A stretch of DNA of 64,000 nt from Eubacteriales bacterium (GTDB taxonomy: Bacteria; Bacillota; Clostridia; Oscillospirales; CAG-272): NCBI GenBank assembly GCA_045127215.1, contig JBGVPV010000046.1, positions 1,792-65,791 of the forward strand, in the 5' to 3' direction. This document shows positions 31,901 to 47,852 of this stretch, in pieces. The first letter of the stretch is position 1, and each line of letters opens with the position of its first letter. The translations under genes and the position numbers were made by a program. Under the pieces are notes generated by a model. That model did not search any database and was not told where the DNA came from. It worked only from the letters and a program-made list of their open reading frames with translations.

Positions 31901-31968
31901 GTTCACAAAAAAGCGAAACTAAAGTTCACAAAAAAGCGATTGCTTTTGTTCGCAATCTGTGATATAAT
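31901..31968 (+). promoter_or_regulatory. Direct-repeat (LytTR-box-like) operator plus promoter upstream of the two-component genes
   Basis: GTTCACAAAAAAGCGA at 31901-31916 and 31924-31939 (23-bp period), abutting TTGCTT (31940-31945), 17 nt, TATAAT (31963-31968). Confidence 0.55.
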
Positions 31969-32050
31969 ATTTTGGGTTTTTGTATTCAAAGATATTTTTT
32001 AGTAGATCTGTGAAAGCAGTTATAATCATAAAATGAAAGAAGGTGTGGTA

Positions 32051-32764
32051 ATGCGAAGGATTGCAGTTCTTGACGATGAAAAATCATATTTAGACTCCGT
32101 CTTAGCACTTTTGGAAGAATATGAAAGTGAACGAAACGAGCATTTTGCGACGGAACGATTTATCAATCCGTCTGACTTTCTTGATAAACTGGAAAGCGGT
32201 GCGGTATATGATATCTATCTTCTTGATATCTATATGCCCGGTGTTACCGGTATGAGTATCGCAACGGAGCTTCGCAGCCGTGGGGTCAAGAGTCCTATTA
32301 TTTTTCTGACCTCCTCCACCGATCACGCTTTACAAGCCTTCGGTGTAGATGCTACCCATTATTTGCTGAAACCCTATACAAAAGACAATTTTTATGTGGG
32401 TATGGATAAAGCGATGCAAAGCATCACCTCCCACAAAGACGACAGCATCGTTTTGAAAGTGGATAATGAATACCGGAGTATCCCGGTATCCAAAATTATA
32501 TACTGCGAAGCCGAAGACAAATATCAGCGGCTCTATTTGGACAAGGCTGAAAGATTGCTTATCCGTATCAGCGGTACAGAACTTTATAAACAGCTTTCGG
32601 AATTTGATTGTTTTTACCGCTGCGGCAGAGCGCATATTGTAAATCTGAACCATATAAGCCGTGTGACACAAGACGGTGTATCGTTCAAAAGCGGTATGGA
32701 TTTGAGTCTTCCGCATACAGTGCAGGCAGGCTTGCGAAAAGCATTCTTTGACTATTTCAATTAG
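32051..32764 (+). CDS. LytTR-family response regulator (AgrA/ComE-like)
   Basis: Receiver domain (IAVLDDE ... IYLLDIYMPGVTG ... IIFLTS ... YLLKP) plus a LytTR DNA-binding domain (IPVSKIIYCEAEDKYQRLYL ... FYRCGRAHIVNLNHI). The start could be 32033 or 32051. Confidence 0.92.
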   Translation: MRRIAVLDDEKSYLDSVLALLEEYESERNEHFATERFINPSDFLDKLESGAVYDIYLLDIYMPGVTGMSIATELRSRGVKSPIIFLTSSTDHALQAFGVDATHYLLKPYTKDNFYVGMDKAMQSITSHKDDSIVLKVDNEYRSIPVSKIIYCEAEDKYQRLYLDKAERLLIRISGTELYKQLSEFDCFYRCGRAHIVNLNHISRVTQDGVSFKSGMDLSLPHTVQAGLRKAFFDYFN

Positions 32765-32779
32765 GAGGTGCCTTTTTAA

Positions 32780-33997
32780 GTGATGCAACATATTGTTTTT
32801 TTGACACTTACGATACTATCTCATATCTGTGCCTCCTTGTTTTTTGCAAAGCCACGTTTTAATAAAATCATCACTGCGGTGATCTGGCTGCTGTACAGCA
32901 GTGTGTTTTTTATGCTCAGTCCAGAGGGATATATCAATTACTTTATTTCCGTTGCGCTGCATCTGACACTGTTTTTTGTCACAACCACAGGTCGTGCCGT
33001 TGAAAAAGGGTTTCTGTTTTTTAGTTATGCCACAACCTATACCTGTTTTTCCACATTATTTAATATGCTGGTGCAGGTCGTGGATAGTATGACGGTCAAG
33101 GTCATTCTTGCCTTTGTGTGTATGGCAGTTATGCAATTTGTTTTGTATAGGCTGCTGCTTCCTTCTTTTCAAAAGGTCGCAAAGTATATTCGTGAGGGTT
33201 GGGGCAAATTCTATGCGGTGGTGCTCAGCTTTTGGGTGCTTATTGTCGGACAGTTCCTGTTTACTTGGATGGAGCTGATAAAAGGTGTTGACAAGATCCT
33301 TTGTTTGATTACGATCGTTGCTTTCTGCTTTACCTATATCGCCATGTTCAACAACATGAAGAACATCGTAGAGCTGTCACGGGAAAAGCAAAAATCCTTA
33401 CATACCGAGCTTTTGCAAATACAGGTAGATGCGCAATCAAAGGAAGCTGCCATCGTGCGGCAAAACCGTCATGATATGCGTCACCACTACCAGGAACTAT
33501 TGTCAATGGCACTTGAAGGGAAAACAGAAAAGATCATCGAATATTTAAAGATTCAGAGTAAAAGCATCGAAGCGATGAATACCGGTCGTTTCTGTGAAAA
33601 TGAAACCATTAACAATATTTTGAAGGTCTTTTATCAAAAGGCTACAAGCCAAAATATCACCATAGACATTCGTGCAGCAGCAAAACCGGATATTTCCGTG
33701 CCGTCTCCGGCACTTGTAACCATCGTTGCGAACATTTTGGAAAACGCCCTTCACGGAGCTGTGGAAAGCAAAGCGAAAAGCCCCAATATTACAGTTTCCA
33801 TTAAACACAAATCAGGTCACTTAGTGATCTCGTGTGAGAACACTTGTAGTCAGTCCCTAAAATTTGAAGAGATGCCCGAATACTTACAAGGCATCGGCAT
33901 CCACAGTGTTATCTCCACTGCGGAAAAGTATAACGGCTCCTGCCGCTTTTCGGCATCTGACGGTGTGTTCAGCTGTACAGTCATTATGGATGAATAA
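32780..33997 (+). CDS. GHKL sensor histidine kinase, AgrC/ComD-like (HPK10-type)
   Basis: About 6 N-terminal TM segments, an H-box NRHDMRHHY, an N-box ILENALHGA and a G-box GIGIHSV. Confidence 0.88.
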   Translation: MMQHIVFLTLTILSHICASLFFAKPRFNKIITAVIWLLYSSVFFMLSPEGYINYFISVALHLTLFFVTTTGRAVEKGFLFFSYATTYTCFSTLFNMLVQVVDSMTVKVILAFVCMAVMQFVLYRLLLPSFQKVAKYIREGWGKFYAVVLSFWVLIVGQFLFTWMELIKGVDKILCLITIVAFCFTYIAMFNNMKNIVELSREKQKSLHTELLQIQVDAQSKEAAIVRQNRHDMRHHYQELLSMALEGKTEKIIEYLKIQSKSIEAMNTGRFCENETINNILKVFYQKATSQNITIDIRAAAKPDISVPSPALVTIVANILENALHGAVESKAKSPNITVSIKHKSGHLVISCENTCSQSLKFEEMPEYLQGIGIHSVISTAEKYNGSCRFSASDGVFSCTVIMDE

Positions 33998-34012
33998 CCG
34001 AATAACGACAAC

Positions 34013-34050
34013 AAAAACTCCTGCCGATTGGCAGGAGTTTTTGTTGTTTT
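34013..34050 (+). terminator. Terminator after the kinase gene
   Basis: aaaaactcctgcc gatt ggcaggagttttt followed by a T-rich tract. Confidence 0.8.
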
Positions 34051-34067
34051 TACGGGTCAAGCACTAA

Positions 34068-34132
34068 CTTCACGACAAAAAAAGCGCACTTCACGACATT
34101 TTTCCGTTTTTAGAGAGCTTATGCATTATAAT
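34068..34132 (+). promoter_or_regulatory. Second LytTR-box-like direct repeat plus activator-type promoter in front of the peptidase/fibre genes
   Basis: CTTCACGACA at 34068-34077 and 34089-34098 (21-bp period). The first copy continues AAAAAAGCG, like the boxes at 31901. TATAAT at 34127-34132 with a poor -35. Confidence 0.55.
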
Positions 34133-34166
34133 TATGATGATTAATGAAGAAAAGGGGTATTTTTCT

Positions 34167-34388
34167 ATGAATATGAAAAAACATACAGAATTTTCAACTC
34201 CGCCTATCGGGAGTAAAATATCACGTTTTGATCATTGCCCATGCTTTTCAGCAAGGAGGAGTTTACTTGCCACAGAGCCGATTTGCTGGTTCTGTCGGTT
34301 TGCAAAGTTTGATCTTTTTGCCGATAAACTTCCGGAAAGCGGTGTTTGTAAACATCCGGTTGAACAAGCAGAAGACAAAAAGAAATAA
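34167..34388 (+). CDS. Small Cys-rich hypothetical protein (73 aa)
   Basis: ATG at 34167, 9 nt after GAAAAGGGG. CPC ... CWFC ... C pattern. First ORF downstream of the box-containing promoter. Confidence 0.4.
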   Translation: MNMKKHTEFSTPPIGSKISRFDHCPCFSARRSLLATEPICWFCRFAKFDLFADKLPESGVCKHPVEQAEDKKK

Positions 34389-34455
34389 CAAAGGTTTTTC
34401 TTTGAAAAAGATTATATAAGAACGCAGTTTTACTGCGAGAAATGAGGTAGCCATT

Positions 34456-35208
34456 ATGGTAAAGGAAAAGACTTCTAAATCCCACAAAACACTAACGATT
34501 ATAGGAATAGTGCTCTGTGTCATTTTAGTGCCGATTCTGCTGATTAATGTTACGCTGATTATCAAGAGTTACGTAAATAAAGATGAGGTTCCGAGTGTTG
34601 GAGGAACATTCCCTATGATCGTACTGACGGACTCAATGTATCCGGATATTAAAAGCGGAGATCTGATCTTCTGTCGTACCGTCCAGGCAGATTCTGTAGA
34701 AGAAGGAATGGTGATATCCTTTTTTGATCCTGCGGGTAACGGAAGCACGGTAGTTACCCACAAGGTGATTGAAATACTCCACAACGAGGACGGGACGCGC
34801 TCGTTCCGTACCAAGGGTATTAACAACAATACCGAGGATAGATTGCTTGTTCCCCAAGATAATCTTGTAGGGCGTTATACGGGGGTGCGTATCCCGTATG
34901 CAGGTAATGTCGCACTCTTTATGCAGACAACATACGGACTTATCGTATGTGTATTTATTCCATTTGTTTTGCTTGTTGCTTATGATATTATTCGCCGCCG
35001 AAAAAACGAGAAGAATCAAAGTAAAGATGTAGCTGCCCTTATGGCAGAGCTGGAAAAACTCAAAGCGGAAAAAGAAGAAAAAATTGACCCCCAATCAGAG
35101 AAGAAGATCTCTTCGACAGAAAATATCGAGAGTTCCGTATCGGAAGAAAAATCCGATGATGAAACTGTTATTCTTCCCTCGGAAGCCACGTCCGGGGATG
35201 GAATATAA
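34456..35208 (+). CDS. Signal peptidase I, archaeal/ER (SipW) type, paralog 1 with long charged C-terminal tail
   Basis: N-terminal TM, catalytic-Ser region VLTDSMYPDIKSGDLI, His region VVTHKVIE, TKGINNN (the GDxN-like box), a second TM, then a 70-aa Lys/Glu/Ser-rich tail. Confidence 0.85.
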   Translation: MVKEKTSKSHKTLTIIGIVLCVILVPILLINVTLIIKSYVNKDEVPSVGGTFPMIVLTDSMYPDIKSGDLIFCRTVQADSVEEGMVISFFDPAGNGSTVVTHKVIEILHNEDGTRSFRTKGINNNTEDRLLVPQDNLVGRYTGVRIPYAGNVALFMQTTYGLIVCVFIPFVLLVAYDIIRRRKNEKNQSKDVAALMAELEKLKAEKEEKIDPQSEKKISSTENIESSVSEEKSDDETVILPSEATSGDGI

Positions 35209-35312
35209 ATTGCCGCGGCAGATGCCGCAAAAAAACCGGCACTGCCGGCAAATATCTTTCCCCGCATAAGGGAAGAGTAAAAACCTACATAATCCGAAAG
35301 GAGATTAAAACA

Positions 35313-35996
35313 ATGATGAAAAACAAGATGATGAGAATTGCTTCCGTTCTTTTGGTAGCGGTTCTCCTTTCCACCTGTGCTATTTCAGGCACTTTCGCAA
35401 AGTACGTAACCTCCAAGGAAAGCACCGATACTGCACGTGTTGCAAAGTTTGGCGTAGACCTTGCTGTTACTGTTGATGGCGCTTTTGCAACCGAGTACGA
35501 TGCAGATACGGCCGCAAACGATGAGCATGGTGTTGCCATTGCAAAGACCGTAGTTGCTGCTACCGGCGATCCTGATAACTTGCTTGCTCCCGGAACCGAG
35601 GGCGACTTGATGGCTTCTGCAACCATTTCCGGCACCCCTGAGGTTGCTGTAAATGTGAAGCAGGAAGCTACCCTTGTTTTAACCGGCTGGGCAGTAGAGG
35701 GTACTTATTACTGTCCTCTGGTTATCACCGTTGATGGCACTGAATTCTACGGTATGGATTATACCTCTGCTGCAGAGTTCATTGCTGCTGTTGAGGCTGC
35801 TCTGGATAGCGACGTGAACTATGCACCCAATACCGATCTGACTGAATCTCACTCTGTGACTTGGGCATGGGCTTTCGAAGGCACCGACGGTAAGCAGACC
35901 GACGAGTTGGATACTGCTCTGGGTAATTACGCTGCCAAGACCGGTGACATCGAGATCTCTTTCACCTACAAGGTTATCGTAACTCAGATCGACTAA
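35313..35996 (+). CDS. TasA/camelysin-like secreted protein with SipW-class signal peptide (putative major subunit)
   Basis: The signal peptide ends in SGTFAKYVTS (compare GGTxAxFxD in TasA/CalY). LAPGTEG and WAWAFEG motifs. Followed by a strong terminator. Confidence 0.75.
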   Translation: MMKNKMMRIASVLLVAVLLSTCAISGTFAKYVTSKESTDTARVAKFGVDLAVTVDGAFATEYDADTAANDEHGVAIAKTVVAATGDPDNLLAPGTEGDLMASATISGTPEVAVNVKQEATLVLTGWAVEGTYYCPLVITVDGTEFYGMDYTSAAEFIAAVEAALDSDVNYAPNTDLTESHSVTWAWAFEGTDGKQTDELDTALGNYAAKTGDIEISFTYKVIVTQID

Positions 35997-36011
35997 TTAG
36001 TTTTTATAATG

Positions 36012-36058
36012 TCTCCCGCCCCGACGTGGCCGGGGCGGGAGATAAACTCTTTTGTTTT
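36012..36058 (+). terminator. Strong GC-rich terminator after the putative major subunit gene
   Basis: tctcccgcccc ... ggggcgggaga 11-bp stem followed by cttttgttttt. Confidence 0.85.
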
Positions 36059-36149
36059 TGATTTTTCACAGTTTCTAACACCTGTTGGGAACTGTGAAAA
36101 GTTAAAAATTTCAATTCAAAAAATATAAAGGGTATAAGGAGGAAGGATC

Positions 36150-37325
36150 GTGCCGGAAACAATAGAAATAAACGAAACGAATAATAGTGTTCGATCAAAC
36201 ACCTCTGCAAATGGAGCTTTTTGGACAGCAATAGCTATTTTGATACTGCTTTTAGTATTGAGTACGGTAATACTTTCAATTCAGCTTTATTCGTTTGCAA
36301 CTATAGATGAGCGTGTTCTATCTATAAAATCAAACACGGATGCTCGTTTCGATGTGTTTTCACTGCAATATGAAAACGCTTCAGGAGAGATAACCGTTAT
36401 CGGAACAGAAGGCGAAAAGATTATTGCACCCGGTACCGATGTTGAGTATGCAGTACGTCTGCGTAATGCCGACAAAGTAGCGCTTGATTACGAGATACTT
36501 CCGACTGCAAAATTTTATTCAGAGTATAAAATTCCTGTTTATGTACGAATTATCGGTCCGGATGAAACCTATGTAGCAGGTGACGCAAAAAATTGGATAC
36601 TGATTGAAGATCTGAATGACACAAGAACTACAGCAACACTGAAAAAGGGTGAATCAGTAGAGTATATTTTTCAATGGAAATGGCCGTATGAGAGTGGAGA
36701 CGACGGATATGACACCTTTCTTGGAGATAACGTATACGAAGAAAATATAGGTGTTATTGTTTCATTTGACGTTTATGCAACGGCAAATACAACTTTAGAC
36801 GATAATGATGGATTGTTCGGAAATGTTTACGGCAATACTTCCTTCATTCTTATTTTCACCGTTTTGCTGCTCATTGCAATCATTATTCTTTTGATTTATA
36901 AGTTCATCAAAAAGCGCAACAAGGATAAAGGACCGACCCCCGTTATCATACCTGCTCCTCAGCAAGAGGTCGAGATTGAGATTGCGCCTGCTCCTGTGTG
37001 CGAACCTTATATTGAACCTGAAGTAAAACAATCTAAGAAGGCGTTTGTTGGTAAGATGTCATTTGTAAATATTGATACTTTGGATCAATACTTTAACGAC
37101 GGTGATACCGTAAGTCTGGAGAAGCTGAAAGCCATGGGGCTCATTCCCGCGAATGTAAAACAGATGAAGGTGCTTGCAAGATACACAGGCGAATTTAGCA
37201 AGGTGCTTACAGTGGAAACTCAAGGAATATCTGCAGAAGCGCGAGTCGCTATTGTGAAGGCAGGCGGAAAAGTAATTATTACCGATGGAGGCACAGATAT
37301 CGCGGAAAACAAGGGTAAGCAATAA
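36150..37325 (+). CDS. Bitopic membrane protein: SipW-type N-terminal segment, TasA-like ectodomain, TM, Pro-rich linker and uL15-like C-terminal domain
   Basis: GTG start 6 nt after AAGGAGG. IQLYSFATID motif. Second TM SFILIFTVLLLIAIIILLIY. The C-terminus FVNIDTLDQYFNDGDTVSLEKLKAMGLI ... KVLARYTGEFSKVLTVETQGISAEARVAIVKAGGKVIIT resembles the ribosomal uL15 C-terminal domain. Confidence 0.75.
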   Translation: MPETIEINETNNSVRSNTSANGAFWTAIAILILLLVLSTVILSIQLYSFATIDERVLSIKSNTDARFDVFSLQYENASGEITVIGTEGEKIIAPGTDVEYAVRLRNADKVALDYEILPTAKFYSEYKIPVYVRIIGPDETYVAGDAKNWILIEDLNDTRTTATLKKGESVEYIFQWKWPYESGDDGYDTFLGDNVYEENIGVIVSFDVYATANTTLDDNDGLFGNVYGNTSFILIFTVLLLIAIIILLIYKFIKKRNKDKGPTPVIIPAPQQEVEIEIAPAPVCEPYIEPEVKQSKKAFVGKMSFVNIDTLDQYFNDGDTVSLEKLKAMGLIPANVKQMKVLARYTGEFSKVLTVETQGISAEARVAIVKAGGKVIITDGGTDIAENKGKQ

Positions 37326-37885
37326 TGAAGAAAAAAGTATTAAGAATAATCTGTACAACATTTCTTTCACTTGTGATGAGTTTCATCATTGGCTTGAGTT
37401 TCTATTCGTTTAATGCCAGAATGGTTCATCACAATTCAATGCCTATGCCGTTTGGCGTGGGTGTTTCGGTAGTCCTCTCGGGCAGTATGGAACCGAAATT
37501 TTCAGCGGGAGATCTTATTGTGGTTGTTGAGGCAGATGATTACGCTATAAATGATATTGTTGTATATCAAAGCGCAAAAAATGCTGTAGTACACCGAATT
37601 ATAGATATTGATGAAGACAGGATTATCACCCAAGGAGATGCCAATAATGTAAGTGACGAACCGATAGACAAAAGCTGCATCAAGGGAAAAGTTTTGTTTT
37701 CAATTCCATACTTTGGATACGTGGTATCATTTCTCAAATCCACACCGGGCACGCTCATTGTACTGGTGCTTGCATTTTTCCTGTTTGAATATTCGTTTAT
37801 ACGGGAGAAGAAAGAACAACGCAAAAAAATAACTGAAATCCGCAATGAGATAGAAACACTCAAAAAGGAGCAGGATATGCAATAA
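37325..37885 (+). CDS. Signal peptidase I, archaeal/ER (SipW) type, paralog 2
   Basis: SGSMEPKFSAGDLIVV, VVHRIIDI and TQGDANN motifs with TM segments at both ends. The start overlaps the upstream stop (TAATG). Confidence 0.9.
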   Translation: MKKKVLRIICTTFLSLVMSFIIGLSFYSFNARMVHHNSMPMPFGVGVSVVLSGSMEPKFSAGDLIVVVEADDYAINDIVVYQSAKNAVVHRIIDIDEDRIITQGDANNVSDEPIDKSCIKGKVLFSIPYFGYVVSFLKSTPGTLIVLVLAFFLFEYSFIREKKEQRKKITEIRNEIETLKKEQDMQ

Positions 37886-37906
37886 AACACGAAAGGGAGG
37901 GTGTCT

Positions 37907-38404
37907 GTGGAAAAGGTTAATAAAAAAACACCCATAGTGTTTTATGTTGGAATCGTATTATTAGGTTTAGTTATCATCAGTTCGTATTTCACGAATGGTT
38001 TATATGCTCGCTATGCTGTGTCGGAGTTTTCCTACGATGACGCAAGGATTGCATCCTTTGACGTAAATATTGTATCGGGCGTCAATCTTTACAGTAAGTT
38101 GATCGAACTTGGTGAAATTCAGCCAGGTGATGAAAGCAGCATATCCTTTACGGTAAACAATAATAGCGAGGTTGCGGTTGCCTTGAATATTACTGCGATT
38201 AATTTGACCGGGAATCTCCCGCTTGATGTACCGCTGAAGGGTACAATCGATGCAAATAGTCCTATTTTTTCAGAAACCTTGAATGCGGGCGAGAGTGCTG
38301 TGCTTACGTTTACAATTACTTGGGATGAAAATAATTCTGATCCTTCTGGTGCGGGAAAAACAGATATTTTGGAGCTGAGAATCGCGGTGGAGCAAGTTGA
38401 TTAA
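37907..38404 (+). CDS. TasA-like small secreted protein with SipW-class signal motif (putative minor subunit)
   Basis: I prefer the GTG at 37907, 6 nt after GGGAGG; the ORF opens at 37901. TNGLYARYAVSE motif followed by DDARIASFDVNI. Confidence 0.65.
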   Translation: MEKVNKKTPIVFYVGIVLLGLVIISSYFTNGLYARYAVSEFSYDDARIASFDVNIVSGVNLYSKLIELGEIQPGDESSISFTVNNNSEVAVALNITAINLTGNLPLDVPLKGTIDANSPIFSETLNAGESAVLTFTITWDENNSDPSGAGKTDILELRIAVEQVD

Positions 38405-38436
38405 AATGCGAGACAAAATGAGTGGAAAGGAGCAAA

Positions 38437-39273
38437 ATGGCCATAAAAAAGAAAGATAATGGAAGAATGAATATCCACATAAGAACAATCGTATGCGCGG
38501 TTTTGGCTCTTGTGATTTTATCGACGATTGCTGTAGGTGGAATATTCGCAAAATACATAGCAGGAACTCAGACGAAAGGCTATCTTTCATCCCCAACGTT
38601 TTATTTTACCAGCGATATATTGAAAGAAACTGCCGTTTCCTATACTCTCAATCCTGGAGAGAACGGTGCTACCGAAGTGTCGTTTCAAGTTCGCAACTTT
38701 GCCGATGAATTACGAATTGCGGATAAAGATATTAGCTTTTCGGTTAATGTAATGCCGTCGGATGGCGTAACCGTTATGATAAACGGTATAGTAACCTCTA
38801 CGGGAACGCTTTTGGCGTCCCCGTCTGACGGTTCTTCTGAAACCGTCACAGTTTCCGGATTAAAAAACGGTCAGACTTATATTATTACCGCAACAGGAGA
38901 TGCCGGATTTGTTAGTACCTTGCGTGCAAGTATCACCGTAAAACCTGACGAGAAGGAGATATACAAGCATTTAGATGTTTCTGATCCGAATTATGTTCTT
39001 CTTACTGTATGGACGAAAAATCTTTCAGGAGCTGTAAATGTAAAGTTCCCGGATGGACTTATACCGGATGGTACGGATAATGTTATGAGTACAGTATACA
39101 ATTATAAAGACGGTTCGTATGTAGCCTCTGAATTTATAGATAGCACAAACTTTGCCCATACTTATTCGTCGCATGTGTATAGATTCTTTAAGACAAATAA
39201 TCAAGATTATACAGCAAGTAATTTTACTGTCAGACTGGGCACTGCTGATGCTATCGAAACAATACCCGAGTAG
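38437..39273 (+). CDS. Secreted protein with SipW-class signal motif (putative minor subunit, 278 aa)
   Basis: ATG at 38437 after GGAAAGGAG. The signal segment ends in VGGIFAKYIAGT. Confidence 0.65.
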   Translation: MAIKKKDNGRMNIHIRTIVCAVLALVILSTIAVGGIFAKYIAGTQTKGYLSSPTFYFTSDILKETAVSYTLNPGENGATEVSFQVRNFADELRIADKDISFSVNVMPSDGVTVMINGIVTSTGTLLASPSDGSSETVTVSGLKNGQTYIITATGDAGFVSTLRASITVKPDEKEIYKHLDVSDPNYVLLTVWTKNLSGAVNVKFPDGLIPDGTDNVMSTVYNYKDGSYVASEFIDSTNFAHTYSSHVYRFFKTNNQDYTASNFTVRLGTADAIETIPE

Positions 39274-39289
39274 AAAGGAGCACTTAGTT

Positions 39290-42200
39290 TTGAAACTTAT
39301 AAAAACAAAGAAATATGTGCTCATGATAGTATTTTTTCTTATGAGCATCTTTTTAATTGTAACTGTTTTTGCTGCAGAAGAGCCTGTTAAAATTGACAAT
39401 AACGGTTCACGCCTTGTCGCAAAACACGCAGAGTTATCTTCGCCGTCATATCAATGGATGATTTCAGACGTGCTTGACAGCACATATTCCAATATCGACG
39501 GTGCGACAGGTCGATACTACGATATAACAGATGAAAACGAAGGTAAATATATAAAAGTATCCGTTAACGGTGTAGAAAGCCAGCCTATTGGCCCAATAGG
39601 AAAGCTTGTTGTCATGGATATAGGAAAGGGTGCAATTAGTCTCGGTACCAGTTACAGCGGCAAGGATTCCGATGGCAATTCCGTTTCCGGCACACATGCC
39701 GCTTCCAACATCTATGTGATAGTCCATAAGGAAAACGGAACCAAGACCGAAAATAACATCGTTTTCAGTGGTAATCTTCCGAGTGCGCCCTTTGATGTGA
39801 CGCTTGCAGGCGTGAATATGGGCACTACCCCAAAAAACAACAACCAGGCACCCGGTAGCAGTGGCTCAAACACGCCGACAACCGGTGAAATCAGAATCCC
39901 TGCCACAAGTAGTGCCGTAAAAAAAGTGACCCTGCGTCTGCGGGATGAGAATATTGTTCGCTACATTTCCTATTACAACGGTAGTGATACAAACCAACCT
40001 GCAACGGTTGCTTCTTCTCTGAAAATAACAAATATCAACGGAGATGGTGAAGTGGAGGGCGGATGTTTATACGTTCCAATCAAACTCGCTCCCGAAGAAA
40101 TTGAAGCATTTGTAAACAGTAAAACAAACTACAACCACTGGAATGCCGGCATTGGTGGAACGGACGGAAACTCTCTTGTTCAGAATTTGCATATTGCAGG
40201 CGGTAAGATACAGGTCGTAACCACGCTGGGCGATAACTGTACAGCTATCGGTGCCGGCGGTAACGGATACTGCCAAATGGAGATCTCCGGCGGTGAAGTT
40301 ATTGCCCATTGCAACGGCACAGGTGCGGCTATTGGCGGTGGCATTGGCTGGAATGCTGCAGCCGGTAAGGCGGACATATTGATTACCGGCGGTAAAATTT
40401 ATGCAGAAAACCACGCAAAAATTACCGCAGCCAAAGACGGAATCAATCATACGGTTGGTGGCGTGGCCATTGGATCCGGCAGCACGTTTCATTCAAGCGG
40501 TAGTAGCGGTACTGTTACGATTACCGGTGGCGAGGTGGAAGCCTATGGAGCTTACGGTAACGGTATCGGTGGCGGCAACAGCTCCTCCTATGCAGGTGGC
40601 GGTGCAACCATTAATATTACCGGCGGTACCGTAAAAGCGAACTCTATTGGTGGCGGAAACAGTGCCAAAGGTGCCGGTGGAGATGCTACGATCACTATTG
40701 ATAATGATGCCAATGTCAGACTGACCAAAGAAGGAACCGATTGCGATTTCTGCGGTATCGGTGGCGGTAACAGTCTTTCCGGTAACGGCGGAAAAGCTAC
40801 CATTACCGTGAAAAGCGGTACTATCAACTCTGACGGCTCCATCGGTGGTGGCGAAGGCGGCGGCACAGGAAATGGTGGCGACGCTACTGTAAATATTTAT
40901 GGCGGTAACCTTACGGCTGCATCTATCGGTGGTGGTACCGGAAGTGTCGGCGGTCACGGCGGCGCAGCTATCGTTGAAGTAACGGACGGATTTATTGAAA
41001 CCGGCTCCATCGGCGGCGGTAAAACCAACAACCCCAATGGTCAACTTGGATATGCCAAAGCAACTATTAAAGGCGGTGACATCGTCGGTCAATTCTTAAT
41101 GGCGGCAGGGGGAACCGAGCGCTGTTCCTTTACGATGACTGGAGGCACACTACACGGTGTGAATACAGCAGATACGTCAAAGTTTATTTATGCGCAACAA
41201 AACGGTGCTGCGGTGTATATGGACGACCCCAATGGTATCGTTTCTATCTTCGGAGGCACCATAAAGGATTGCTCTGCCAAAAATGGTGGTGCTGTTTATA
41301 TGACTGCGGGAACGTTTACCCTTTCCGGTGGCACGATTACCGATTGCCATGTCACAGGAAATGGCGGCGCTGTTTATCTCGGCGGTGGACAAATGACTGT
41401 TGTAGGAGGAAGTATCAAGGCAAACACAGCTAAAAACGGCGCAGGTGCTTACGTTAATGCGTCAACGCCAAACGACGGTGTTTTCGTGAGCGGTGGAGAA
41501 ATCACAGATAATATTGCGGAAGAGAATGGCGGTGGTATTGCCATCAACAACGGATTTTATAAAATGACAGGTGGCGCCGTTGAAGGAAACACATCAACAA
41601 ACGGAAGCGGCGGAGGTATCTATGTAGCGGCCAACGGCGTTGATGTTTTGGTCGATATCCGTAGCGGTTCGGTCAGCAATAACAAAGCAGGCATCAGTGG
41701 AGGCGCGATAGCAGTTGTAGGACAAAACAACGGATTGGAAAATATTTCGGTTACCGTTGGCGTCAATGAGCAACATTATGACGATCAGGGAAATGAGGTG
41801 ACTTGCGATCACGATTATACGGCAGTAGGTATCGTGGTAGAAGCTTGTCCTGAACTCAAAAACAACTACGCAACGAAGAACGGCGGATGTATCTATATCA
41901 CAGGTGGAGTTAAAACAATGCTCAATACATACTGCCTTGTTGAAGAAGGCAGCTCTGCGGCAGACGGAAAATCCAAGAGCAATTTTATGATGGTCGAGGG
42001 CGGTACTGTAAATATTTCCACCGCAGACGGCAACACCGAAGACGGGGGTAACTCCCACGGCAAGATCACAATCAATAACACCATTCATGTTTATGCCGGT
42101 GATATGGACCTTTATGGTTCTATGACAAACCCGCAGATTCTCGCACCGATTACGGTAGACGTTACTACTGAGCGTGGTTCTTACGAGGATCACCGAACAT

Positions 42201-44851
42201 CGGATGGTGAATACTACAAGCTACAGTATTTTGAAAATTTTACGGATCCGGATACGGGCATTCGGACAGGTCAGTATACCGTGTACCAGATTAAGCATGG
42301 AGATTCACATGAGATCCTTCTCTCTATTTATGAGCATGAAGGATACACCATTGACGGTTGGTGGACAAGTGAATTTGGAGACGTTCCGGGAAGTATAGAA
42401 TACCTGGTGAATAAGTCTTACGTGTTTACAAATGAGTCTGATGAAAATCCGGGTCATCTGACTCTGTATGCCAGATGGCTTCCTGTTGGATATTACGTTT
42501 ATTTTGAATCCGGAACGACAGATTCGTACCGAGGCGAAATGGCTCATGTCCGATATAATTATGATACCGAAAATATGCTTCCGGCCAATGAGTTTTTTAG
42601 ACCGGGATGGATATTTGCGGGCTGGGATTATGACGGTGAAGGCGATAAGGAGCTTCTTGCAGATAAGGCAACCGTAAAAAATCTGACCACGGACAGAAGC
42701 ATTACACTGGTTGCCGTTTGGGTACTTTGTGATCATAAAGATGAACTCTTTTCCTATTCTGCTTCAGGGGATACTTTGACCCGTAGCTGTTATTGCGAAG
42801 AATGTACACAAACAGCTACACTCATTGCAGAGGATACAGTTTATGTTGACAACAATACTGCTCCCTATGAGGCTGAGATAAGGATTGTTACCAATGTTAA
42901 AAACGGGGCGCAGCCTAACAGTTGGACGCTTACTCCTATATACGAAGGAAAGAAGTACAATGGCAATAATTTTGATTCTGAAGAGTTTTTGATTGGAGCA
43001 GGCCGTTATTCGGTCAGCATAACCGATGGCGGAGAAACCGTTACAGTCAATTTTGAAATCAAAAAAGCTACAAGAGATACTCCCGAAAAACCACGGTATG
43101 AAAGTAATGAAACCAATCAGGAAATAACTAAGGGGCAAATTAAAATTATTAATCCGGACGATACGACGGGCGGCATTCTGCAATATAAGATCGTATGGCA
43201 CGATGATCTCGGAACCTCTCATGAGGCCTTTGCCGATTTGAATACGGCAATTACAACGGGGTTCACTCTTACAACAAACTATACGAACTACTACGTGTAT
43301 GTAAGATACGAGGAGGATGACAATCACAACGCCTCGGAGTGGATCAGAGCAGAATCGGTACTCTTTTACGTGGGTAACGTCTATATTTATATAAACAGTG
43401 AAAAGGGTATTGAATACTCAACGACGTCGGAAGAAGCACAACGAGGCTTGGTTATCGATGTTTATGCTTCTGAGGGCTATTATTTGTTTGATACAAAAGT
43501 GACAGATGATAATGAGGCTACTGTTATTGAGGAACAAGTGCTACGACAAAGATACTACATCGCAAATATTCCGGAATCTACATCAGCTCCAATTAATATT
43601 TATGTCACTATTACGGGTGTAAAGAAAGAAATCCAAATTTCCGCTAACATAACTGAGGCAGAAGAGTTTGGTACCGTGAAAGGCATGTCTGCGCTGATCA
43701 CACGTGACTCGGCTTACACTGTGTATTTCGAAATTCAAAATTATGATGTGTACACCAATCCAAAGCTGGTATTCAACACACTGTTGCCTGAAAAAACGAC
43801 GCTGATCTTTGTGGATAAGACAACGGGAACTCCTGTGCTTTGGTATTATAATGTGCTCAATTCAACCAACGAAATTGCTTTAAGCCAGTTTGTGCGAATG
43901 GGTGCTGAAAACACGCTCTTCAGCGTTCCCGCAAGTTCAATCGATACACCTTTGAAATATCAGGTCATCATTGATTTTGCTGATAGTGAAGGATGTTCCG
44001 GAGAGAATATTACAACTACATTTTCGGCTGATGTTTCGGCTGATGACAAAAGCAATGGAGCCCCCGACTTTCCTGCAAGCTCGCTTGTAAGCCAATTAAA
44101 AGACATTGCTTCTTCATCTGTTGTTGTTACTGATTCTGAAGAAGATACTATGCAAAAGAATTTGCATATTGAATATCTGCAGATCACAGACAATGCAATA
44201 GCGTCAAAATGGAATAATCGTTGCGGTGCGTTGCTACTGACCCCATTATGCGAACTTACCGAGGATGCCCGCATAGAAGTTATAGATCATACCGGAATGA
44301 AAACAACGTATTACCGTAATTTGAGTGGGCAGTTTATTATTTCTCTCGCAGGCAGTCAAAATGAGGATTTGCAGATAACTCTGATATCTGATATTTTTCC
44401 GAATGAGCAATCCGAATATACATTCCGAGTGGAACTCATAAGTTCCTGTTCGTTGGCGGGATTAGCTCCGTTGAACGGAATAAAGGTATATGATTCGAAA
44501 CAGTTAACATTTACTAAAAATACAAAAGATGTAGAGCCTTCATTGAAAATAGACGGAGATAAGAATATATACAACGTTGGTGATACGGTTACGGTAAATA
44601 TAGAATACCGAAACTGTCCGGAATATACTGTTCTTGTACTTCGACTACTAAGCAAGGATACATCTGTAAGCTTGTCGAGCAATACTTATGTAGATACAGG
44701 CTGGAAGCAGCAGAGTGATACCGTAGAGGGGGATAATTATGTGCCTCTTGGTCAAAATTTGACGGGAAGTTGTTGCATAGTAGTGGAACTGCGAGATATA
44801 ACTGGCAACGTTATTACAAGCGTTCCGTATTACTTCGTCGTTTGCGAGTAA
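39290..44851 (+). CDS. Giant secreted beta-helix / adhesin-like protein (about 1853 aa)
   Basis: Probable TTG start at 39290, 9 nt after AAAGGAG, giving a Sec signal peptide MKLIKTKKYVLMIVFFLMSIFLIVTVFAAEE. Gly-rich IGGGxxxxGxGGxAT(I/V) repeats, GGA(I/V)Y Pmp-like repeats, two InlB-B-type repeats, and a long C-terminal region of unknown fold. The start codon is uncertain. Confidence 0.8.
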   Translation: MKLIKTKKYVLMIVFFLMSIFLIVTVFAAEEPVKIDNNGSRLVAKHAELSSPSYQWMISDVLDSTYSNIDGATGRYYDITDENEGKYIKVSVNGVESQPIGPIGKLVVMDIGKGAISLGTSYSGKDSDGNSVSGTHAASNIYVIVHKENGTKTENNIVFSGNLPSAPFDVTLAGVNMGTTPKNNNQAPGSSGSNTPTTGEIRIPATSSAVKKVTLRLRDENIVRYISYYNGSDTNQPATVASSLKITNINGDGEVEGGCLYVPIKLAPEEIEAFVNSKTNYNHWNAGIGGTDGNSLVQNLHIAGGKIQVVTTLGDNCTAIGAGGNGYCQMEISGGEVIAHCNGTGAAIGGGIGWNAAAGKADILITGGKIYAENHAKITAAKDGINHTVGGVAIGSGSTFHSSGSSGTVTITGGEVEAYGAYGNGIGGGNSSSYAGGGATINITGGTVKANSIGGGNSAKGAGGDATITIDNDANVRLTKEGTDCDFCGIGGGNSLSGNGGKATITVKSGTINSDGSIGGGEGGGTGNGGDATVNIYGGNLTAASIGGGTGSVGGHGGAAIVEVTDGFIETGSIGGGKTNNPNGQLGYAKATIKGGDIVGQFLMAAGGTERCSFTMTGGTLHGVNTADTSKFIYAQQNGAAVYMDDPNGIVSIFGGTIKDCSAKNGGAVYMTAGTFTLSGGTITDCHVTGNGGAVYLGGGQMTVVGGSIKANTAKNGAGAYVNASTPNDGVFVSGGEITDNIAEENGGGIAINNGFYKMTGGAVEGNTSTNGSGGGIYVAANGVDVLVDIRSGSVSNNKAGISGGAIAVVGQNNGLENISVTVGVNEQHYDDQGNEVTCDHDYTAVGIVVEACPELKNNYATKNGGCIYITGGVKTMLNTYCLVEEGSSAADGKSKSNFMMVEGGTVNISTADGNTEDGGNSHGKITINNTIHVYAGDMDLYGSMTNPQILAPITVDVTTERGSYEDHRTSDGEYYKLQYFENFTDPDTGIRTGQYTVYQIKHGDSHEILLSIYEHEGYTIDGWWTSEFGDVPGSIEYLVNKSYVFTNESDENPGHLTLYARWLPVGYYVYFESGTTDSYRGEMAHVRYNYDTENMLPANEFFRPGWIFAGWDYDGEGDKELLADKATVKNLTTDRSITLVAVWVLCDHKDELFSYSASGDTLTRSCYCEECTQTATLIAEDTVYVDNNTAPYEAEIRIVTNVKNGAQPNSWTLTPIYEGKKYNGNNFDSEEFLIGAGRYSVSITDGGETVTVNFEIKKATRDTPEKPRYESNETNQEITKGQIKIINPDDTTGGILQYKIVWHDDLGTSHEAFADLNTAITTGFTLTTNYTNYYVYVRYEEDDNHNASEWIRAESVLFYVGNVYIYINSEKGIEYSTTSEEAQRGLVIDVYASEGYYLFDTKVTDDNEATVIEEQVLRQRYYIANIPESTSAPINIYVTITGVKKEIQISANITEAEEFGTVKGMSALITRDSAYTVYFEIQNYDVYTNPKLVFNTLLPEKTTLIFVDKTTGTPVLWYYNVLNSTNEIALSQFVRMGAENTLFSVPASSIDTPLKYQVIIDFADSEGCSGENITTTFSADVSADDKSNGAPDFPASSLVSQLKDIASSSVVVTDSEEDTMQKNLHIEYLQITDNAIASKWNNRCGALLLTPLCELTEDARIEVIDHTGMKTTYYRNLSGQFIISLAGSQNEDLQITLISDIFPNEQSEYTFRVELISSCSLAGLAPLNGIKVYDSKQLTFTKNTKDVEPSLKIDGDKNIYNVGDTVTVNIEYRNCPEYTVLVLRLLSKDTSVSLSSNTYVDTGWKQQSDTVEGDNYVPLGQNLTGSCCIVVELRDITGNVITSVPYYFVVCE

Positions 44852-44911
44852 TGATAAACACAATATATCAAAAAGAGCCCGCAAAAACATTTGCAGACCC
44901 TTTCCAGTTTA

Positions 44912-44947
44912 CGGCGGGTAGATTTGTTTCTGCCCGCTGTTTTTTTC
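44912..44947 (+). terminator. Terminator after the giant gene
   Basis: gcgggtaga ... tctgcccgc stem (one G-U pair) followed by TGTTTTTTT. Confidence 0.7.
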
Positions 44948-45023
44948 AGTATTTTGAGAACATTAAGTAAATAAGCAAAAGCCAGACGTCCAAACGCAGA
45001 GCTATGCTTTTTGGAGGTGGAAT

Positions 45024-45197
45024 ATGGTTGAAAATCGAAAAGAATCTTTATGGGTTCATTGTCCGAACTGTGGGGGAAAGACAAGGACGAAGGTATATGA
45101 AGATACAGTTCTTGTGAAATTTCCGCTGTATTGCCCTAAATGCAAAAAGGAAATTCGGATAGATGTTGTAAAATTGAAAATGGTGTTAAGCAAGTGA
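45024..45197 (+). CDS. Cysteine-rich KTR-type zinc-ribbon protein (57 aa; below the ORF-track cutoff)
   Basis: GGAGGTGG RBS, then MVENRKESLWVHCPNCGGKTRTKVYEDTVLVKFPLYCPKCKKEIRIDV. The two CxxC pairs with KTR are typical of a family common on Clostridial mobile elements. Confidence 0.75.
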   Translation: MVENRKESLWVHCPNCGGKTRTKVYEDTVLVKFPLYCPKCKKEIRIDVVKLKMVLSK

Positions 45198-45214
45198 GCC
45201 CGACACATAAGTGC

Positions 45215-45260
45215 AGAGCCAGCTTTTCCGTTCAAAATAACGGACAAGCTGGCTCTTTGT
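45215..45260 (+). terminator. Terminator hairpin
   Basis: agagccagctt ... aagctggctct long stem followed by TTTGT. Confidence 0.65.
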
Positions 45261-45281
45261 CATTCAATAGGTAATGCGTTT

Positions 45282-46805
45282 TTGTCGCGTAAGGCTGTAA
45301 GTACAGATTGGAAAACAGGAATAAATGTTGCCGGAGAATTTTGCAGATTGTTTATGGCATTGTTGTCTCTCCATACGGGGAATTTTGCTAACATACGTAA
45401 TGATGATCATGTAAAATCCGTTATGATAACAATTGATAACGGAATCTACTATATGAATGACTTAACCGTAAAAGGCGGTGTTTATTTTAATCGTGCACCC
45501 GTGTATGATGAAATAGCACGGAAACTCAACTCTTGTGCTGTTGATGGATATAAAGATGCTAAAGAGGATTTCGGTCCCGAGCATATTAATATGTCGAAAT
45601 ATGATTGGGAAAGATTTACCGAATCTTGCGACAACTGTTTAAAGATGTTGGATAAAGCTATTGAGTTTGTACGTGATGCAGAATTGGGAAAGACATTGTG
45701 CAAAAACATGGTAGTTATCGGCGAAGCGTGTAGGGATTCGTGTTCTTGGAAGTTCGATGTTAACTCTTGGACATACGATCACTATGTACAGGAATATTCA
45801 TTTACAGCATCCGCTAAAGAATCACGCACAAAGGATATTAATGTTTCAAAGAACTGGGGCAAATTCTTTGAGCCTGCCCCTGTTGAAGCCGTAACAGAAC
45901 AATTATCAAGCGGTCGTAAAGAAATTGAGCTTGAACTCGGAAGAAAAGCATATTGGGCAGAGCATCAGTCTGAAAAGCAAAGTTTGGAAAATGAAAAGAA
46001 AACTTTACAGGCACGTATAGAGGAACTGAATAAAGAAATTGCATCACTGCCAATTTTGTCGAAAATCAGTGAGGTTAAAAGCAAAATATCCTCGTTGACT
46101 AATGAAAAGAGTAGTTTGGGATTATTCAAACTCAAAGAAAAGAAAGCTATGCAAGAGCAGATCGATGATCAAGAAGCTGAATTGAGACAACTCGAAACAG
46201 CTGCTTCAAATCAGAAAAAGCCTTTGGAATCCGAAATTGCACGATGCAAGAAACGTATTCAAGAAATTGAAAATGAATTTAATAAAGAGCGCGGAACGGT
46301 ATCTACAGAAGGAACACTTACCATTAAAGATGCTATTGCAGACGGAAAAATAACATTGAGCCCTGAACAATTGGTTAAACATCTTTTGGATAAATTGCCC
46401 TCTGGATACGAATTTGATGAACTCAGTGCATTTAGTTGTAGTTTACATAGAGATTTAGATGATTGTTGGGCGGTGGTTGTCGAACGTAAAGGAGTCGGAA
46501 GTTCAGGCATATTGCTTGTAATGCAAGCAGAAAGCGAAGAGGATCCTATTAAATCAATTATTGTTCAAACCTCTTGCGGAAGAGATGTAGATGACATTGC
46601 ACTTTGGTGTCAGATTTGCTCTCTCGTAATTATGTCCTTGTTTGATGATGTTTCTCGTGATACGGCAGAAATCGTGGCAGCCAAGCTTATGCTTGATGAT
46701 GAAAAATCGAGATTCTTCCAAGATGGACTTTGCATCGAGTATGTAACATATGAACTCAATTTGGAAGATAAAGATTTGGCTTTGAAATCTATGCTTATAA
46801 GATGA
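45282..46805 (+). CDS. Hypothetical protein with central coiled coil (up to 507 aa; start uncertain)
   Basis: Long ORF. The central roughly 130 aa are heptad-like Lys/Glu/Leu-rich (KKTLQARIEELNKEIASL ... EIARCKKRIQEIENEF). No recognised catalytic motif. The first codon of the ORF is TTG without a clear RBS. Confidence 0.65.
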   Translation: MSRKAVSTDWKTGINVAGEFCRLFMALLSLHTGNFANIRNDDHVKSVMITIDNGIYYMNDLTVKGGVYFNRAPVYDEIARKLNSCAVDGYKDAKEDFGPEHINMSKYDWERFTESCDNCLKMLDKAIEFVRDAELGKTLCKNMVVIGEACRDSCSWKFDVNSWTYDHYVQEYSFTASAKESRTKDINVSKNWGKFFEPAPVEAVTEQLSSGRKEIELELGRKAYWAEHQSEKQSLENEKKTLQARIEELNKEIASLPILSKISEVKSKISSLTNEKSSLGLFKLKEKKAMQEQIDDQEAELRQLETAASNQKKPLESEIARCKKRIQEIENEFNKERGTVSTEGTLTIKDAIADGKITLSPEQLVKHLLDKLPSGYEFDELSAFSCSLHRDLDDCWAVVVERKGVGSSGILLVMQAESEEDPIKSIIVQTSCGRDVDDIALWCQICSLVIMSLFDDVSRDTAEIVAAKLMLDDEKSRFFQDGLCIEYVTYELNLEDKDLALKSMLIR

Positions 46806-46943
46806 TTTATAATATACGTCGAGGTGTTCGCCTCGGCGTAGTTTTTTCAAAGAAATAGTTACGATTACAGCGTGAGTTCTTTACTTTTGGGTCGAAATAT
46901 GGTATAATATGTTATCAGCAATCTGTATTTAACGAGGTGTCAA

Positions 46944-47852
46944 ATGATTGTTTACCATTACTGTAGTTTAGATGTCTTCACTAAGATAATATCGGGTAAA
47001 TCAATTCGCCTATCCGATATAACAAAATCTAATGATTCCATGGAAATATTATGGATAACAAAGTACATAGAAGAAATATTTGACGAAGAATTCCAAAAGG
47101 AAACGGAGAAAACAAAATATTTCAAAGAAGACTACCCTAAAGATGTTTTTACGGAATTGAGAGAACATTACTCAAAGGAATTTTTTGATGAGAAGCAAAA
47201 ACTATATTCATATTTTGTCTGTTGCTTTTCCGAAAAAGGTGATCTCCTTAGCCAATGGAGAGGTTATGCAGATGATGGAAACGGTATTGCAATCGGATTT
47301 GACGGTGATATCTTAAAGCAAATAGGAAAGCCTTCGGCAGACGATCCTATTAGTACGGATATTTTTAATTTCAATAAAATCGAATATTCTGAATACTCGC
47401 AAAAAGTGCAAATCAGAAAAATTGCCTCGGATTTGATAACAGAGTTGAAAGAAGTCGCTAAATCCAAGCCTTCTGATATAAAGCAGAATAGTATGAAGGC
47501 ATATAATACATGTTTTCTCAAATTATTTAATTTGTCAATCTTTATGAAAAATCCTTTCTTTAAAGAGGAACAAGAATGGCGTATTTGTCATTGGACCGAA
47601 ATAACTCCTAAGAATAAAGCATCCGGCATTCACATAAATGATGGCGTTACTTTGTCAGATATCGGATACCATCAAAGACGTGATGATATGATTCCGCACA
47701 TTGATTTGAGCTTTGAAAAAAGTTCTAAATCAATGATTAAGGAAATAATTATTGGACCGAAATGCAAAGTTCGCGAAAATGATATAAAGACTTTTTTGAT
47801 TTCTAACGGTATGGATTGTCAAATTTCCAAATCAAAAGGAACTTATCGATAA
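46944..47852 (+). CDS. DUF2971 family protein
   Basis: VYHYCSLDVFTKIISGKSIRLSDITKSNDSME, CCFSEKGDLLSQWRGYADDGNGIAIGF and KNPFFKEEQEWRI are the hallmark blocks of DUF2971 as I remember them. GAGGTG RBS. Confidence 0.8.
   Translation: MIVYHYCSLDVFTKIISGKSIRLSDITKSNDSMEILWITKYIEEIFDEEFQKETEKTKYFKEDYPKDVFTELREHYSKEFFDEKQKLYSYFVCCFSEKGDLLSQWRGYADDGNGIAIGFDGDILKQIGKPSADDPISTDIFNFNKIEYSEYSQKVQIRKIASDLITELKEVAKSKPSDIKQNSMKAYNTCFLKLFNLSIFMKNPFFKEEQEWRICHWTEITPKNKASGIHINDGVTLSDIGYHQRRDDMIPHIDLSFEKSSKSMIKEIIIGPKCKVRENDIKTFLISNGMDCQISKSKGTYR

Follow-up and report, generated by a model that had tools for sequence, protein, structure and literature searches.

In a 64-kb stretch of DNA from a Eubacteriales bacterium of the CAG-272 lineage (contig JBGVPV010000046.1; "the window" below is this whole stretch, and all positions are in its numbering), eight open reading frames (ORFs) form one co-directional block on the + strand. 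We conclude, with a probability of roughly 60%, that the block is an operon for a surface fibre that is attached to the cell, built of several subunits, dependent on SipW-type signal peptidases and similar in its working to the fibres of TasA and BsaA. An earlier note, written from the sequence alone, had described the eight ORFs, the motifs of both peptidases, related N-terminal motifs and a strong GC terminator after the 227-aa gene; all are present where it placed them, the last as a hairpin. Four of the products are candidate substrates of the two encoded peptidases and are named here by their length in amino acids: p227, p391, p167 and p283. The features of the operon are these:

34134-34388, + strand: small Cys/His-rich ORF, gene 1 of the operon; 84 aa, probably 73 aa from 34167
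34456-35208, + strand: sip1, first archaeal/endoplasmic reticulum (ER)-type signal peptidase I paralog, ending in a long charged tail; 250 aa
35313-35996, + strand: p227, candidate major fibre subunit; 227 aa
36010-36044, + strand: GC-rich hairpin 3' of p227, putative attenuator or terminator within the operon, or mRNA stabiliser
36150-37325, + strand: p391, candidate base or anchor subunit; 391 aa
37325-37885, + strand: sip2, second archaeal/ER-type signal peptidase I paralog; 186 aa
37901-38404, + strand: p167, putative minor subunit; 167/165 aa
38422-39273, + strand: p283, putative second minor protein, candidate adaptor; 283/278 aa
39290-44851, + strand: giant secreted protein, candidate distal adhesin; about 1853 aa
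44911-44940, + strand: terminator at the end of the operon, 3' of the giant gene; 12-bp stem, then a T run

The start codon of sip2 and the stop codon of p391 overlap by 1 nt.

Is this set of genes a unit elsewhere? We scanned one genome per species, and the related loci referred to below are the best 80 of 473 stretches that encode p227 relatives; single loci are cited by L number. The loci listed are mostly metagenome-assembled genomes (MAGs) of Oscillospiraceae, Acutalibacteraceae, Lachnospiraceae, Ruminococcaceae and other Clostridia, with a few from Coriobacteriia and Erysipelotrichaceae, and the record titles of the 473 stretches point mostly to Clostridia MAGs from gut, faeces or rumen. 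The order sip1, p227, p391, sip2 is kept in 48 of the 53 loci with enough flanking sequence. A recognisable subunit-like gene follows sip2 in 40 of 64 loci, and an ORF of at least 900 aa occupies the position of the giant gene, within 4.5 kb, in 42 of 47. The earlier note had raised the question whether the block is conserved as a unit; in its core order and its giant-size ORF, it is.

Against TIGR02228, the model for archaeal-type signal peptidase I, sip1 scores 100.2 bits and sip2 90.0 bits (curated cutoff 51.85). The window proteins carry the motifs TDSMYP and VVTHKV (sip1) and SGSMEP and VVHRII (sip2). Their counterparts are conserved among the homologs from related loci, as tdSM.P, vtHRv and TkGd.Nn.eD in 74 sip1 proteins and as sGSMeP, v.HRi and T.GDANn..D in 68 sip2 proteins. 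In both peptidases the catalytic residues are Ser and His (not Lys), accompanied by a GDxN..D motif. Judged by these motifs both enzymes are catalytically intact, and the claim of two archaeal-type signal peptidases with a Ser/His dyad holds. With the Bacillus SipW equivalog NF046067 they reach 99.8 and 79.9 bits, below its cutoff of 190; on these scores they are of the broad SipW type and are not SipW orthologs. Compared with each other they align at 100% hhalign probability, with an identity of only 29%. Each has a fixed place in the related loci, sip1 5' of the major-subunit gene and sip2 3' of the anchor gene, which argues that the duplication is old and conserved in this type of locus and no peculiarity of this element. 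The earlier note had called duplicated peptidases unusual; they are instead a general trait of the whole locus type.

The four candidate substrates are related to one another in different degrees. Their families were built from the 80 related loci and compared profile to profile with hhalign. The p227 and p167 families are homologous over their full length (99.5%); p227 matches residues 27-212 of p391 at 99%, and p391 matches p167 at 97.7%. The match of p283 to p167 (97.2%) covers only the first 84 or so N-terminal columns. By these comparisons p227, p167 and the p391 ectodomain are three beta-sandwich paralogs, and p283 shares the N-terminal region only.

A signal-peptide end of the form [TLI]-[FY]-A-[KR]-Y is found in three of the four substrates, the p391 family being the exception. 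In p227 it reads SGTFAKY, with cleavage predicted after SGTFA. In p167 it reads GLYARY and is followed by a DDARIASFDV strand, the protein ending in EQVD; the family alignment conserves GLYARY...D-x-ARVA-x-F. In p283 it reads GGIFAKY; its family conserves AKY[IV] followed by FYF(T/E)S, and the protein has a C-terminal domain of its own. Where the p283 gene is recognisable on the gene maps, it lies directly upstream of the giant gene. The idea that the mid-sized proteins are paralogs with a common signal end was thus borne out, except that p283 belongs by its N-terminal region only and the N-termini of the p391 family are variable. The strand D-x-ARVA-x-F-x-V is conserved in two of the four proteins, p227 and p167. 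A D-x-A-R strand had been claimed for three, and the p391 instance proved to be misassigned: its DARFDVF aligns to the GAFATEY strand of p227, not to the ARVAKF strand, and we rejected it as a donor strand. In the translations, neither a PxTG motif nor a hydrophobic tail is present at the C-terminus of p227, p167, p283 or the giant protein.

Several properties single out p227 as the probable major subunit. The pattern SGTFAKY...D-x-ARVAK[FW]GV is invariant in 34 homologs that are 61-94% identical to p227, and the motif also extends across 86 homologs from genome loci, in which SGTFAKY is followed by V or T. K45 and E110 are likewise invariant in homologs. In the AlphaFold2 (AF2) model, whose mean predicted local distance difference test score (pLDDT) is 65, residues 92-227 form a confident beta-rich core and residues 21-91 are unstructured in the monomer. 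The family is large, with 4,854 clusters at 50% identity (E <= 1e-3), 995 of them with E <= 1e-30; no Pfam or NCBIfam model matched it, and its database records say 'hypothetical'. In metagenomes p227 variants that are 82-96% identical form more than 90 distinct clusters at the 90% identity level.

The hairpin at 36010-36044 has a 14-bp stem with 10 GC pairs (dG -29.8). We surveyed the strongest local hairpin within 90 nt downstream of each gene in the related loci. After p227-family genes the median is -24.4 kcal/mol, and 75% lie at or below -20; after the sip1, p391, sip2, p167 and p283 genes, each sampled in at least 17 loci, the share at or below -20 is 0-12%. In Clostridium perfringens the terminator that follows bsaA gives rise to two mRNAs, an abundant one of sipW-bsaA and a read-through one of the operon (PMC7395162). 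The conservation of the hairpin and the likeness to the bsaA layout support the proposal that the major subunit is the gene before an attenuating terminator; on sequence and by this analogy, p227 would behave as that subunit.

How would a fibre be held at the cell? The layout of p391 suggests an answer. It consists of an N-terminal membrane segment, a subunit-like ectodomain, a membrane helix at about residues 224-256 and a cytoplasmic tail. Most of its orthologs carry a sortase sorting signal at the C-terminus, made up of [LIVSP]-P-x-T-G(-D), a hydrophobic helix and a charged tail. The anchors that lack PxTG (the window p391 and those of L003, L015, L017 and L051) have instead a cytoplasmic tail of 100-135 aa with a domain homologous to the C-terminal half of ribosomal protein uL15, and only anchors without PxTG have this uL15-like domain. 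In the window it covers about residues 294-376 (37029-37277); the tail scores 47 bits with Pfam Ribosomal_L27A (cutoff 21.5) and is 36% identical over 70 aa to Bacillus subtilis RplO. The position of the anchor gene in L045 (10805-12118) is taken by a gene for a 438-aa protein that has S-layer homology (SLH) domains where others have PxTG or a transmembrane segment. The claim of a membrane-embedded base is thereby strengthened: p391 looks like a base, with orthologs that carry PxTG or, in one locus, SLH domains. That p391 keeps the domain and lacks a conserved donor strand fits a base subunit that accepts a strand and need not donate one. In most C. perfringens strains a BsaB paralog with LPXTG, encoded at the matching gene position, has been proposed as the anchor of the BsaA fibre (preprint 10.1101/2024.11.04.621531). 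No sortase gene is present in the window.

The giant protein has an ordinary-looking signal peptide and a Gly-rich repeat region and lacks a C-terminal anchor. It has no significant Pfam, NCBIfam or PDB match. Between about residues 300 and 800 it contains 20-32% Gly and 21 GGxhxh motifs; these two features are the only basis of the earlier label 'beta-helix', and neither hidden Markov model (HMM) nor structure searches support it. The giants of related loci are highly divergent, and some have Flg_new, DUF285 or Hint domains. At the N-terminus of the window giant (39290-39420), AEEPVKIDNNGSRLVAKHAEL after the predicted signal peptide resembles D-x-ARVAKF and lies at nearly the same distance from the cleavage site. 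As a general donor strand of giants ('GSRLVAKH' at ARVAKF spacing) we rejected it, as the closest homologs, in L025 and L077, do not have it. The giants of a few other loci (L041, L045 and L063) have an AKY-type signal end.

How would such a set of proteins be assembled? The steps that we propose follow the published model for BsaA (preprint 10.1101/2024.11.04.621531). The precursors would be exported by Sec and remain tethered to the membrane by their uncleaved signal peptides. A tethered subunit would accept the free N-terminal strand of the growing fibre; sip1 or sip2 would then cleave after Ala and so free that subunit's own strand for its neighbour (donor-strand exchange). Growth would take place at the base, and p167, p283 and the giant protein, made first, would end up at the distal, adhesive end. 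The shaft would be p227, made in excess from a short transcript of sip1 and p227 that stops at the hairpin. Finally p391 would accept the last strand, end the fibre at the cell and hold it there, by a sortase-type PxTG attachment in most species and here by its membrane helix and cytoplasmic uL15-like domain. A LytTR two-component system encoded just upstream would turn the operon on, and the whole 13.4-kb unit would travel as cargo of mobilizable elements in this lineage. By analogy with the BsaA and TasA systems we infer polymerisation, a giant at the tip and the roles of the minor subunits; the placement of p167, p283 and the giant at the distal end is inferred from gene order only.

A bolder version of this proposal is possible, and we put it forward tentatively. 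The loci may represent a widespread, undescribed class of Gram-positive pilus with signal peptidases as assembly enzymes, one licensing the shaft and the other the minor subunits and tip, or termination. The anchor would be a paralog of the subunits fixed by a sortase signal or in the membrane, and the uL15-like domain might couple the base to the cell interior.

The operon belongs to a larger segment, with these further features:

31901-45324, + strand: 13.4-kb cassette of two-component system, candidate fibre operon and Cys_rich_KTR gene
31902-31933, + strand: direct-repeat pair TTCACAAAA, 23 nt start to start, 5' of the regulator; candidate LytTR box (autoregulation)
32033-32764, + strand: LytTR-family response regulator (Pfam Response_reg 5e-15, LytTR 3e-10)
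32780-33997, + strand: histidine kinase with a hydrophobic N-terminal half and a GHKL domain (Pfam HATPase_c_5 5e-12)
34069-34098, + strand: direct-repeat pair TTCACGACA, 21 nt start to start; candidate LytTR-dependent promoter of the fibre operon
45024-45197, + strand: Cys_rich_KTR zinc-ribbon protein, last gene of the cassette (Pfam 1.5e-21)

The GHKL domain (HATPase_c_5) is the domain type of AgrC/ComD-like kinases. The repeats at 34069-34098 lie 28 nt upstream of a TATAAT (34127-34132) that itself precedes the first operon gene, and the pair is conserved in L082, L083 and L084. Paired TTCACRAMA at 21-23 nt start to start occurs exactly twice in the 64 kb, with 0 expected from shuffled sequences. 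A LytTR regulator stands upstream in 8 of the 80 related loci. Between 31 and 46 kb, a search for riboswitches and other known RNAs gave only a sub-threshold Phe_leader match, which lies over a terminator.

The cassette aligns by blastn as one segment, 95% identical, to L082, L083 and L084, and the outer flanks differ. In those three loci a serine recombinase, a relaxase and NikA/MobC lie upstream and TnpV downstream; the window has an alpha-amylase gene on the upstream side, with a MobA relaxase (51348) and a serine recombinase (52658) on the downstream side. A conserved segment with differing flanks argues that the block is movable cargo in this lineage. No convincing terminal repeats are present at the cassette ends. 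The earlier claim of carriage on a mobilizable element under a two-component system is upheld for this lineage, with its LytTR system and cassette. Most related loci do not adjoin mobile-element genes.

A 95%-identical allele has the matching gene set, with products of 73, 250, 227, 391, 186, 165, 278 and 1855 aa; the start of the first ORF at 34167 (73 aa) is the gene call in a close allele. This Cys-rich ORF has the pattern HCPC...CWFC...CKH, matches no family in Pfam or NCBIfam and has homologs, among the related loci, only in L050, L077 and close alleles. Divergence between the cassette alleles (window 31901-45324 against L082 6562-20018) is mosaic. It is greatest in the kinase (85% amino acid identity), p278 (that is, p283; 92%), p227 (92.5%), sip1 (93.6%) and the giant protein (95.7%), and smallest in p391 (99.2%), in the regulator (98.3%) and in the Cys-rich ORF and the KTR protein, both 100% identical. 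The variation is concentrated in the sensor and in predicted surface-exposed parts.

Other genes of the window place the cassette in its setting. Just beyond it (45282-47852) are genes for a 507-aa coiled-coil protein and a DUF2971 protein (PADLOC candidate PDC-S31, 3e-8), a pair that may be defence cargo of the mobile element. Between 49990 and 54283 lies the backbone of a mobilizable element: an HTH_36 protein, the MobA/VirD2 relaxase (51348-52328) and the large serine recombinase (52658-54283). Upstream, 25158-26975 encodes a 605-aa protein with the Listeria-Bacteroides repeat (Flg_new) and GLUG domains, likely a surface protein. On the - strand, 12520-19964 holds rpoB and rpoC; the left part of the window is thus likely to be core chromosome.

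Do the substrates belong to the TasA or BsaA families? Some observations lean that way. By eye, the TasA cleavage site GGTWA|AFND resembles the signal ends of the substrates in position. Short, sub-significant hhalign alignments with TasA are colinear through the signal end, the donor region and a PG...N.G strand. (The TasA sequence that we used is identical to PDB 8aur in its mature part, residues 28-261.) When signal peptides were removed and the scores set against a null of block-shuffled TasA alignments, the p391 ectodomain reached 25.8 against 14.0 +/- 2.2 (z = 5.25, 126 colinear columns), p167 gave z = 2.4, and p227 was not significant. Among the best Foldseek matches of the p167 model are FimF (8e-4), the TasA fibre 8aur (1.3e-3, rank 4, template modelling (TM) score 0.33), CfaB, PapE and AbpA (7ueg, 8.6e-3, TM 0.39); OCRL1 and other unrelated Ig-like domains rank beside these donor-strand filament subunits. 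At least 30 related loci, unlike the window, have an extra gene 3' of the giant gene (for example L008:17858-18442, L018:8010-8540 and L017:18072-18605). Its product, of about 159-225 aa, has a signal end of the form G-T-x-[LF]-A-Y-M-F. Of four members tested against the BsaA model TIGR04090, three match it at 5e-11 to 1e-8, below its 60-bit cutoff.

The following results weigh against our conclusion. None of the four substrates matches Peptidase_M73/TasA (PF12389) at E <= 0.1, the best being p167 with E = 0.17 and 12.1 bits (cutoff 22.5), and no window protein matches TIGR04090. The N-terminal 56-aa fragments of the four proteins give no match at E <= 10 to the SipW-related signal and substrate models of NCBIfam (TIGR0408x/0409x series); the presence of the short signal-peptide model in the library was unconfirmed. 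The hhalign probability against a profile of 117 PF12389 proteins is at most 11.5%. The AF2 models of p227 and p167 both have a mean pLDDT of 65, Foldseek TM scores are 0.2-0.45, and the p227 model finds nothing significant, TasA being absent from its top 50. With its ordinary signal peptide, and lacking a conserved donor strand, the giant has no evident way into a fibre. Nor does the mechanism account for two peptidases; they may divide the work, one serving the shaft and the other the tip or termination, or may match dosage to the two transcripts. Sortase-like ORFs, by a scan for active-site motifs only, lie within 10 kb in just about 7 of the 80 loci. Finally, the TTCACRAMA consensus was drawn from the same two sites that it finds, and is a lead and no test.

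Further searches agree with these: Peptidase_M73 is not among the families matched repeatedly in a Pfam scan of 117 family members, hhalign against TasA alone is not significant, and p227, the p227-family profile and the giant have no sequence match in the PDB. Membership of the TasA/camelysin family is accordingly not shown, with no significant HMM match, profile probabilities below 12% and weak fold matches (TM 0.33-0.39, pLDDT 65). Our own view is that the substrates function in the manner of TasA/BsaA-type subunits, to which they may be very distantly related, and that they are not assignable to those families.

What else could the operon make? One alternative is a scaffold that is released into a biofilm matrix, as with TasA and BsaA, with p391 and the giant merely co-regulated surface or matrix components. 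The characterised relatives TasA, BsaA and CalY are matrix fibres; the giant's signal peptide and its lack of a conserved donor strand sit well with this account, and strain HN13 has no covalent link between BsaB and the BsaA oligomers (preprint 10.1101/2024.11.04.621531). We think it improbable nonetheless: in dozens of species the third gene keeps a subunit-like domain fused to PxTG, SLH or transmembrane anchors, and the fixed order of minor subunit(s) and then giant, in 42 of 47 loci, suggests one assembly. Alternatively nothing polymerises, the peptidases mature monomeric surface proteins of an adhesin complex, and the N-terminal motif is a recognition and cleavage signal only. The absence of significant homology to proven fibre subunits, the moderate quality of the models and a fold that is a generic Ig-like beta-sandwich all speak for this reading. 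It is hard to square, however, with an invariant D-x-ARVAK[FW]GV that lies past the predicted cleavage site and exceeds what a cleavage signal needs, with a conserved attenuator that, like those of pilus and BsaA operons, boosts the output of one subunit, with an anchor paralog that has kept the domain and not the strand, or with the BsaA-family relative in related loci; we consider it unlikely as well.

A role in the life of the mobile element in this lineage is compatible with the fibre mechanism itself: the product would be an aggregation or mating-contact fibre, induced through a peptide-sensing LytTR system and aiding transfer. The cassette adjoins relaxase and serine-recombinase genes in two different arrangements, and the GHKL domain of its kinase is of the type found in AgrC/ComD-like kinases. 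Yet the relaxase and other element genes of the window have no match in the 80 loci and the serine recombinase matches weakly in 2, none of 72,556 plasmids carries a homolog, and a gene for a signalling peptide was not identified. We regard such a role as decidedly unlikely.

If the operon encodes a cell-attached fibre, as we favour, how new is it? Our literature search, incomplete in its coverage, found no described system with this gene set, in agreement with the earlier note. The closest known system is the sipW-bsaABCRSD operon of C. perfringens, and the locus is best seen as a multi-part variant of the TasA/BsaA fibre systems and not as a wholly new kind. As in bsa, the series opens with a SipW-type peptidase gene; the major subunit is next, with a read-through terminator after it (PMC7395162). 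Further paralogous subunit genes follow, one of which in most bsa strains has LPXTG and is the proposed anchor (preprint 10.1101/2024.11.04.621531). Both operons encode a large secreted partner, and bsa expression needs a two-component system (PMC7395162; preprint 10.1101/2024.11.04.621531). Related loci, moreover, hold a gene that matches the BsaA family model. The authors of the bsa study note that BsaA/TasA paralogs are often found in operons with LPXTG proteins and signal peptidases, and suggest heteropolymers (preprint 10.1101/2024.11.04.621531).

The differences from bsa are nevertheless many. There are two peptidase paralogs here and one in bsa; the subunit families here are unrecognised by BsaA/TasA models; signal end and strand take the forms [FY]-A-[KR]-Y and D-x-ARVAKF. 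In the place of the 70-kDa vWA protein BsaC of bsa there is a giant partner of 1.1-2.2 kaa. The N-E-K isopeptide triad of a subset of the BsaA family was not identified in the present proteins, the regulator is of LytTR type and upstream where that of bsa lies inside the operon, and the anchor has a uL15-like cytoplasmic domain. With tapA-sipW-tasA of B. subtilis and sipW-tasA-calY (CapP) of B. cereus the locus shares a dedicated ER/archaeal-type peptidase beside its substrates and a similar cleavage context, T-[WF]-A|x-[FY]. The motifs PG...N.G strand, W.W.F and a terminal ..TQ are colinear with those of TasA, whose N-terminal strand drives donor-strand exchange (PMC9674648). Set against this, sequence homology is not statistically demonstrable and the fold match is weak; a TapA/CapP-like accessory protein is absent, and an anchor, a second peptidase and a giant are added.

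Other pili invite comparison at a greater distance. In sortase-assembled Gram-positive pili a shaft of repeated subunits carries an adhesin at its tip, and a base subunit is attached to the wall by an LPXTG-type signal. This three-part logic recurs in the present locus, with PxTG on p391 orthologs; in contrast to those pili, the shaft and minor subunits here have no sorting signal, the locus has no gene for a pilus-specific sortase, and joining would be by non-covalent strand exchange triggered by signal peptidase. In Bacteroidota the polymerisation of type V pili is licensed by a protease cut, and the anchor subunit keeps its lipid tether. Like type V, chaperone-usher and AbpA pili and archaeal threads, the fibre would consist of Ig-like subunits joined by donor-strand exchange, and the best Foldseek matches of p167 include chaperone-usher pilins and AbpA, though no type V pilin. 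The sequences are unrelated to all of these, the envelope differs, and chaperone, usher and lipoprotein signal are absent. What is new in the locus is its unrecognised subunit families, the conserved peptidase pair, the interchangeable anchors (one with a uL15-like domain) and the giant partner.

If the operon does make a fibre, it would serve many uncultured gut Firmicutes as a main adhesive appendage and give studies of colonisation and aggregation a target. It would also be a natural experiment in which strand exchange triggered by signal peptidase has been elaborated into a structure of base, shaft and tip, with two peptidases, interchangeable anchors (PxTG, SLH, or transmembrane segment with uL15-like domain) and a very variable giant adhesin as its features of interest. 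Thousands of proteins would gain a name from new models of the p227, p167, p283 and p391 families.

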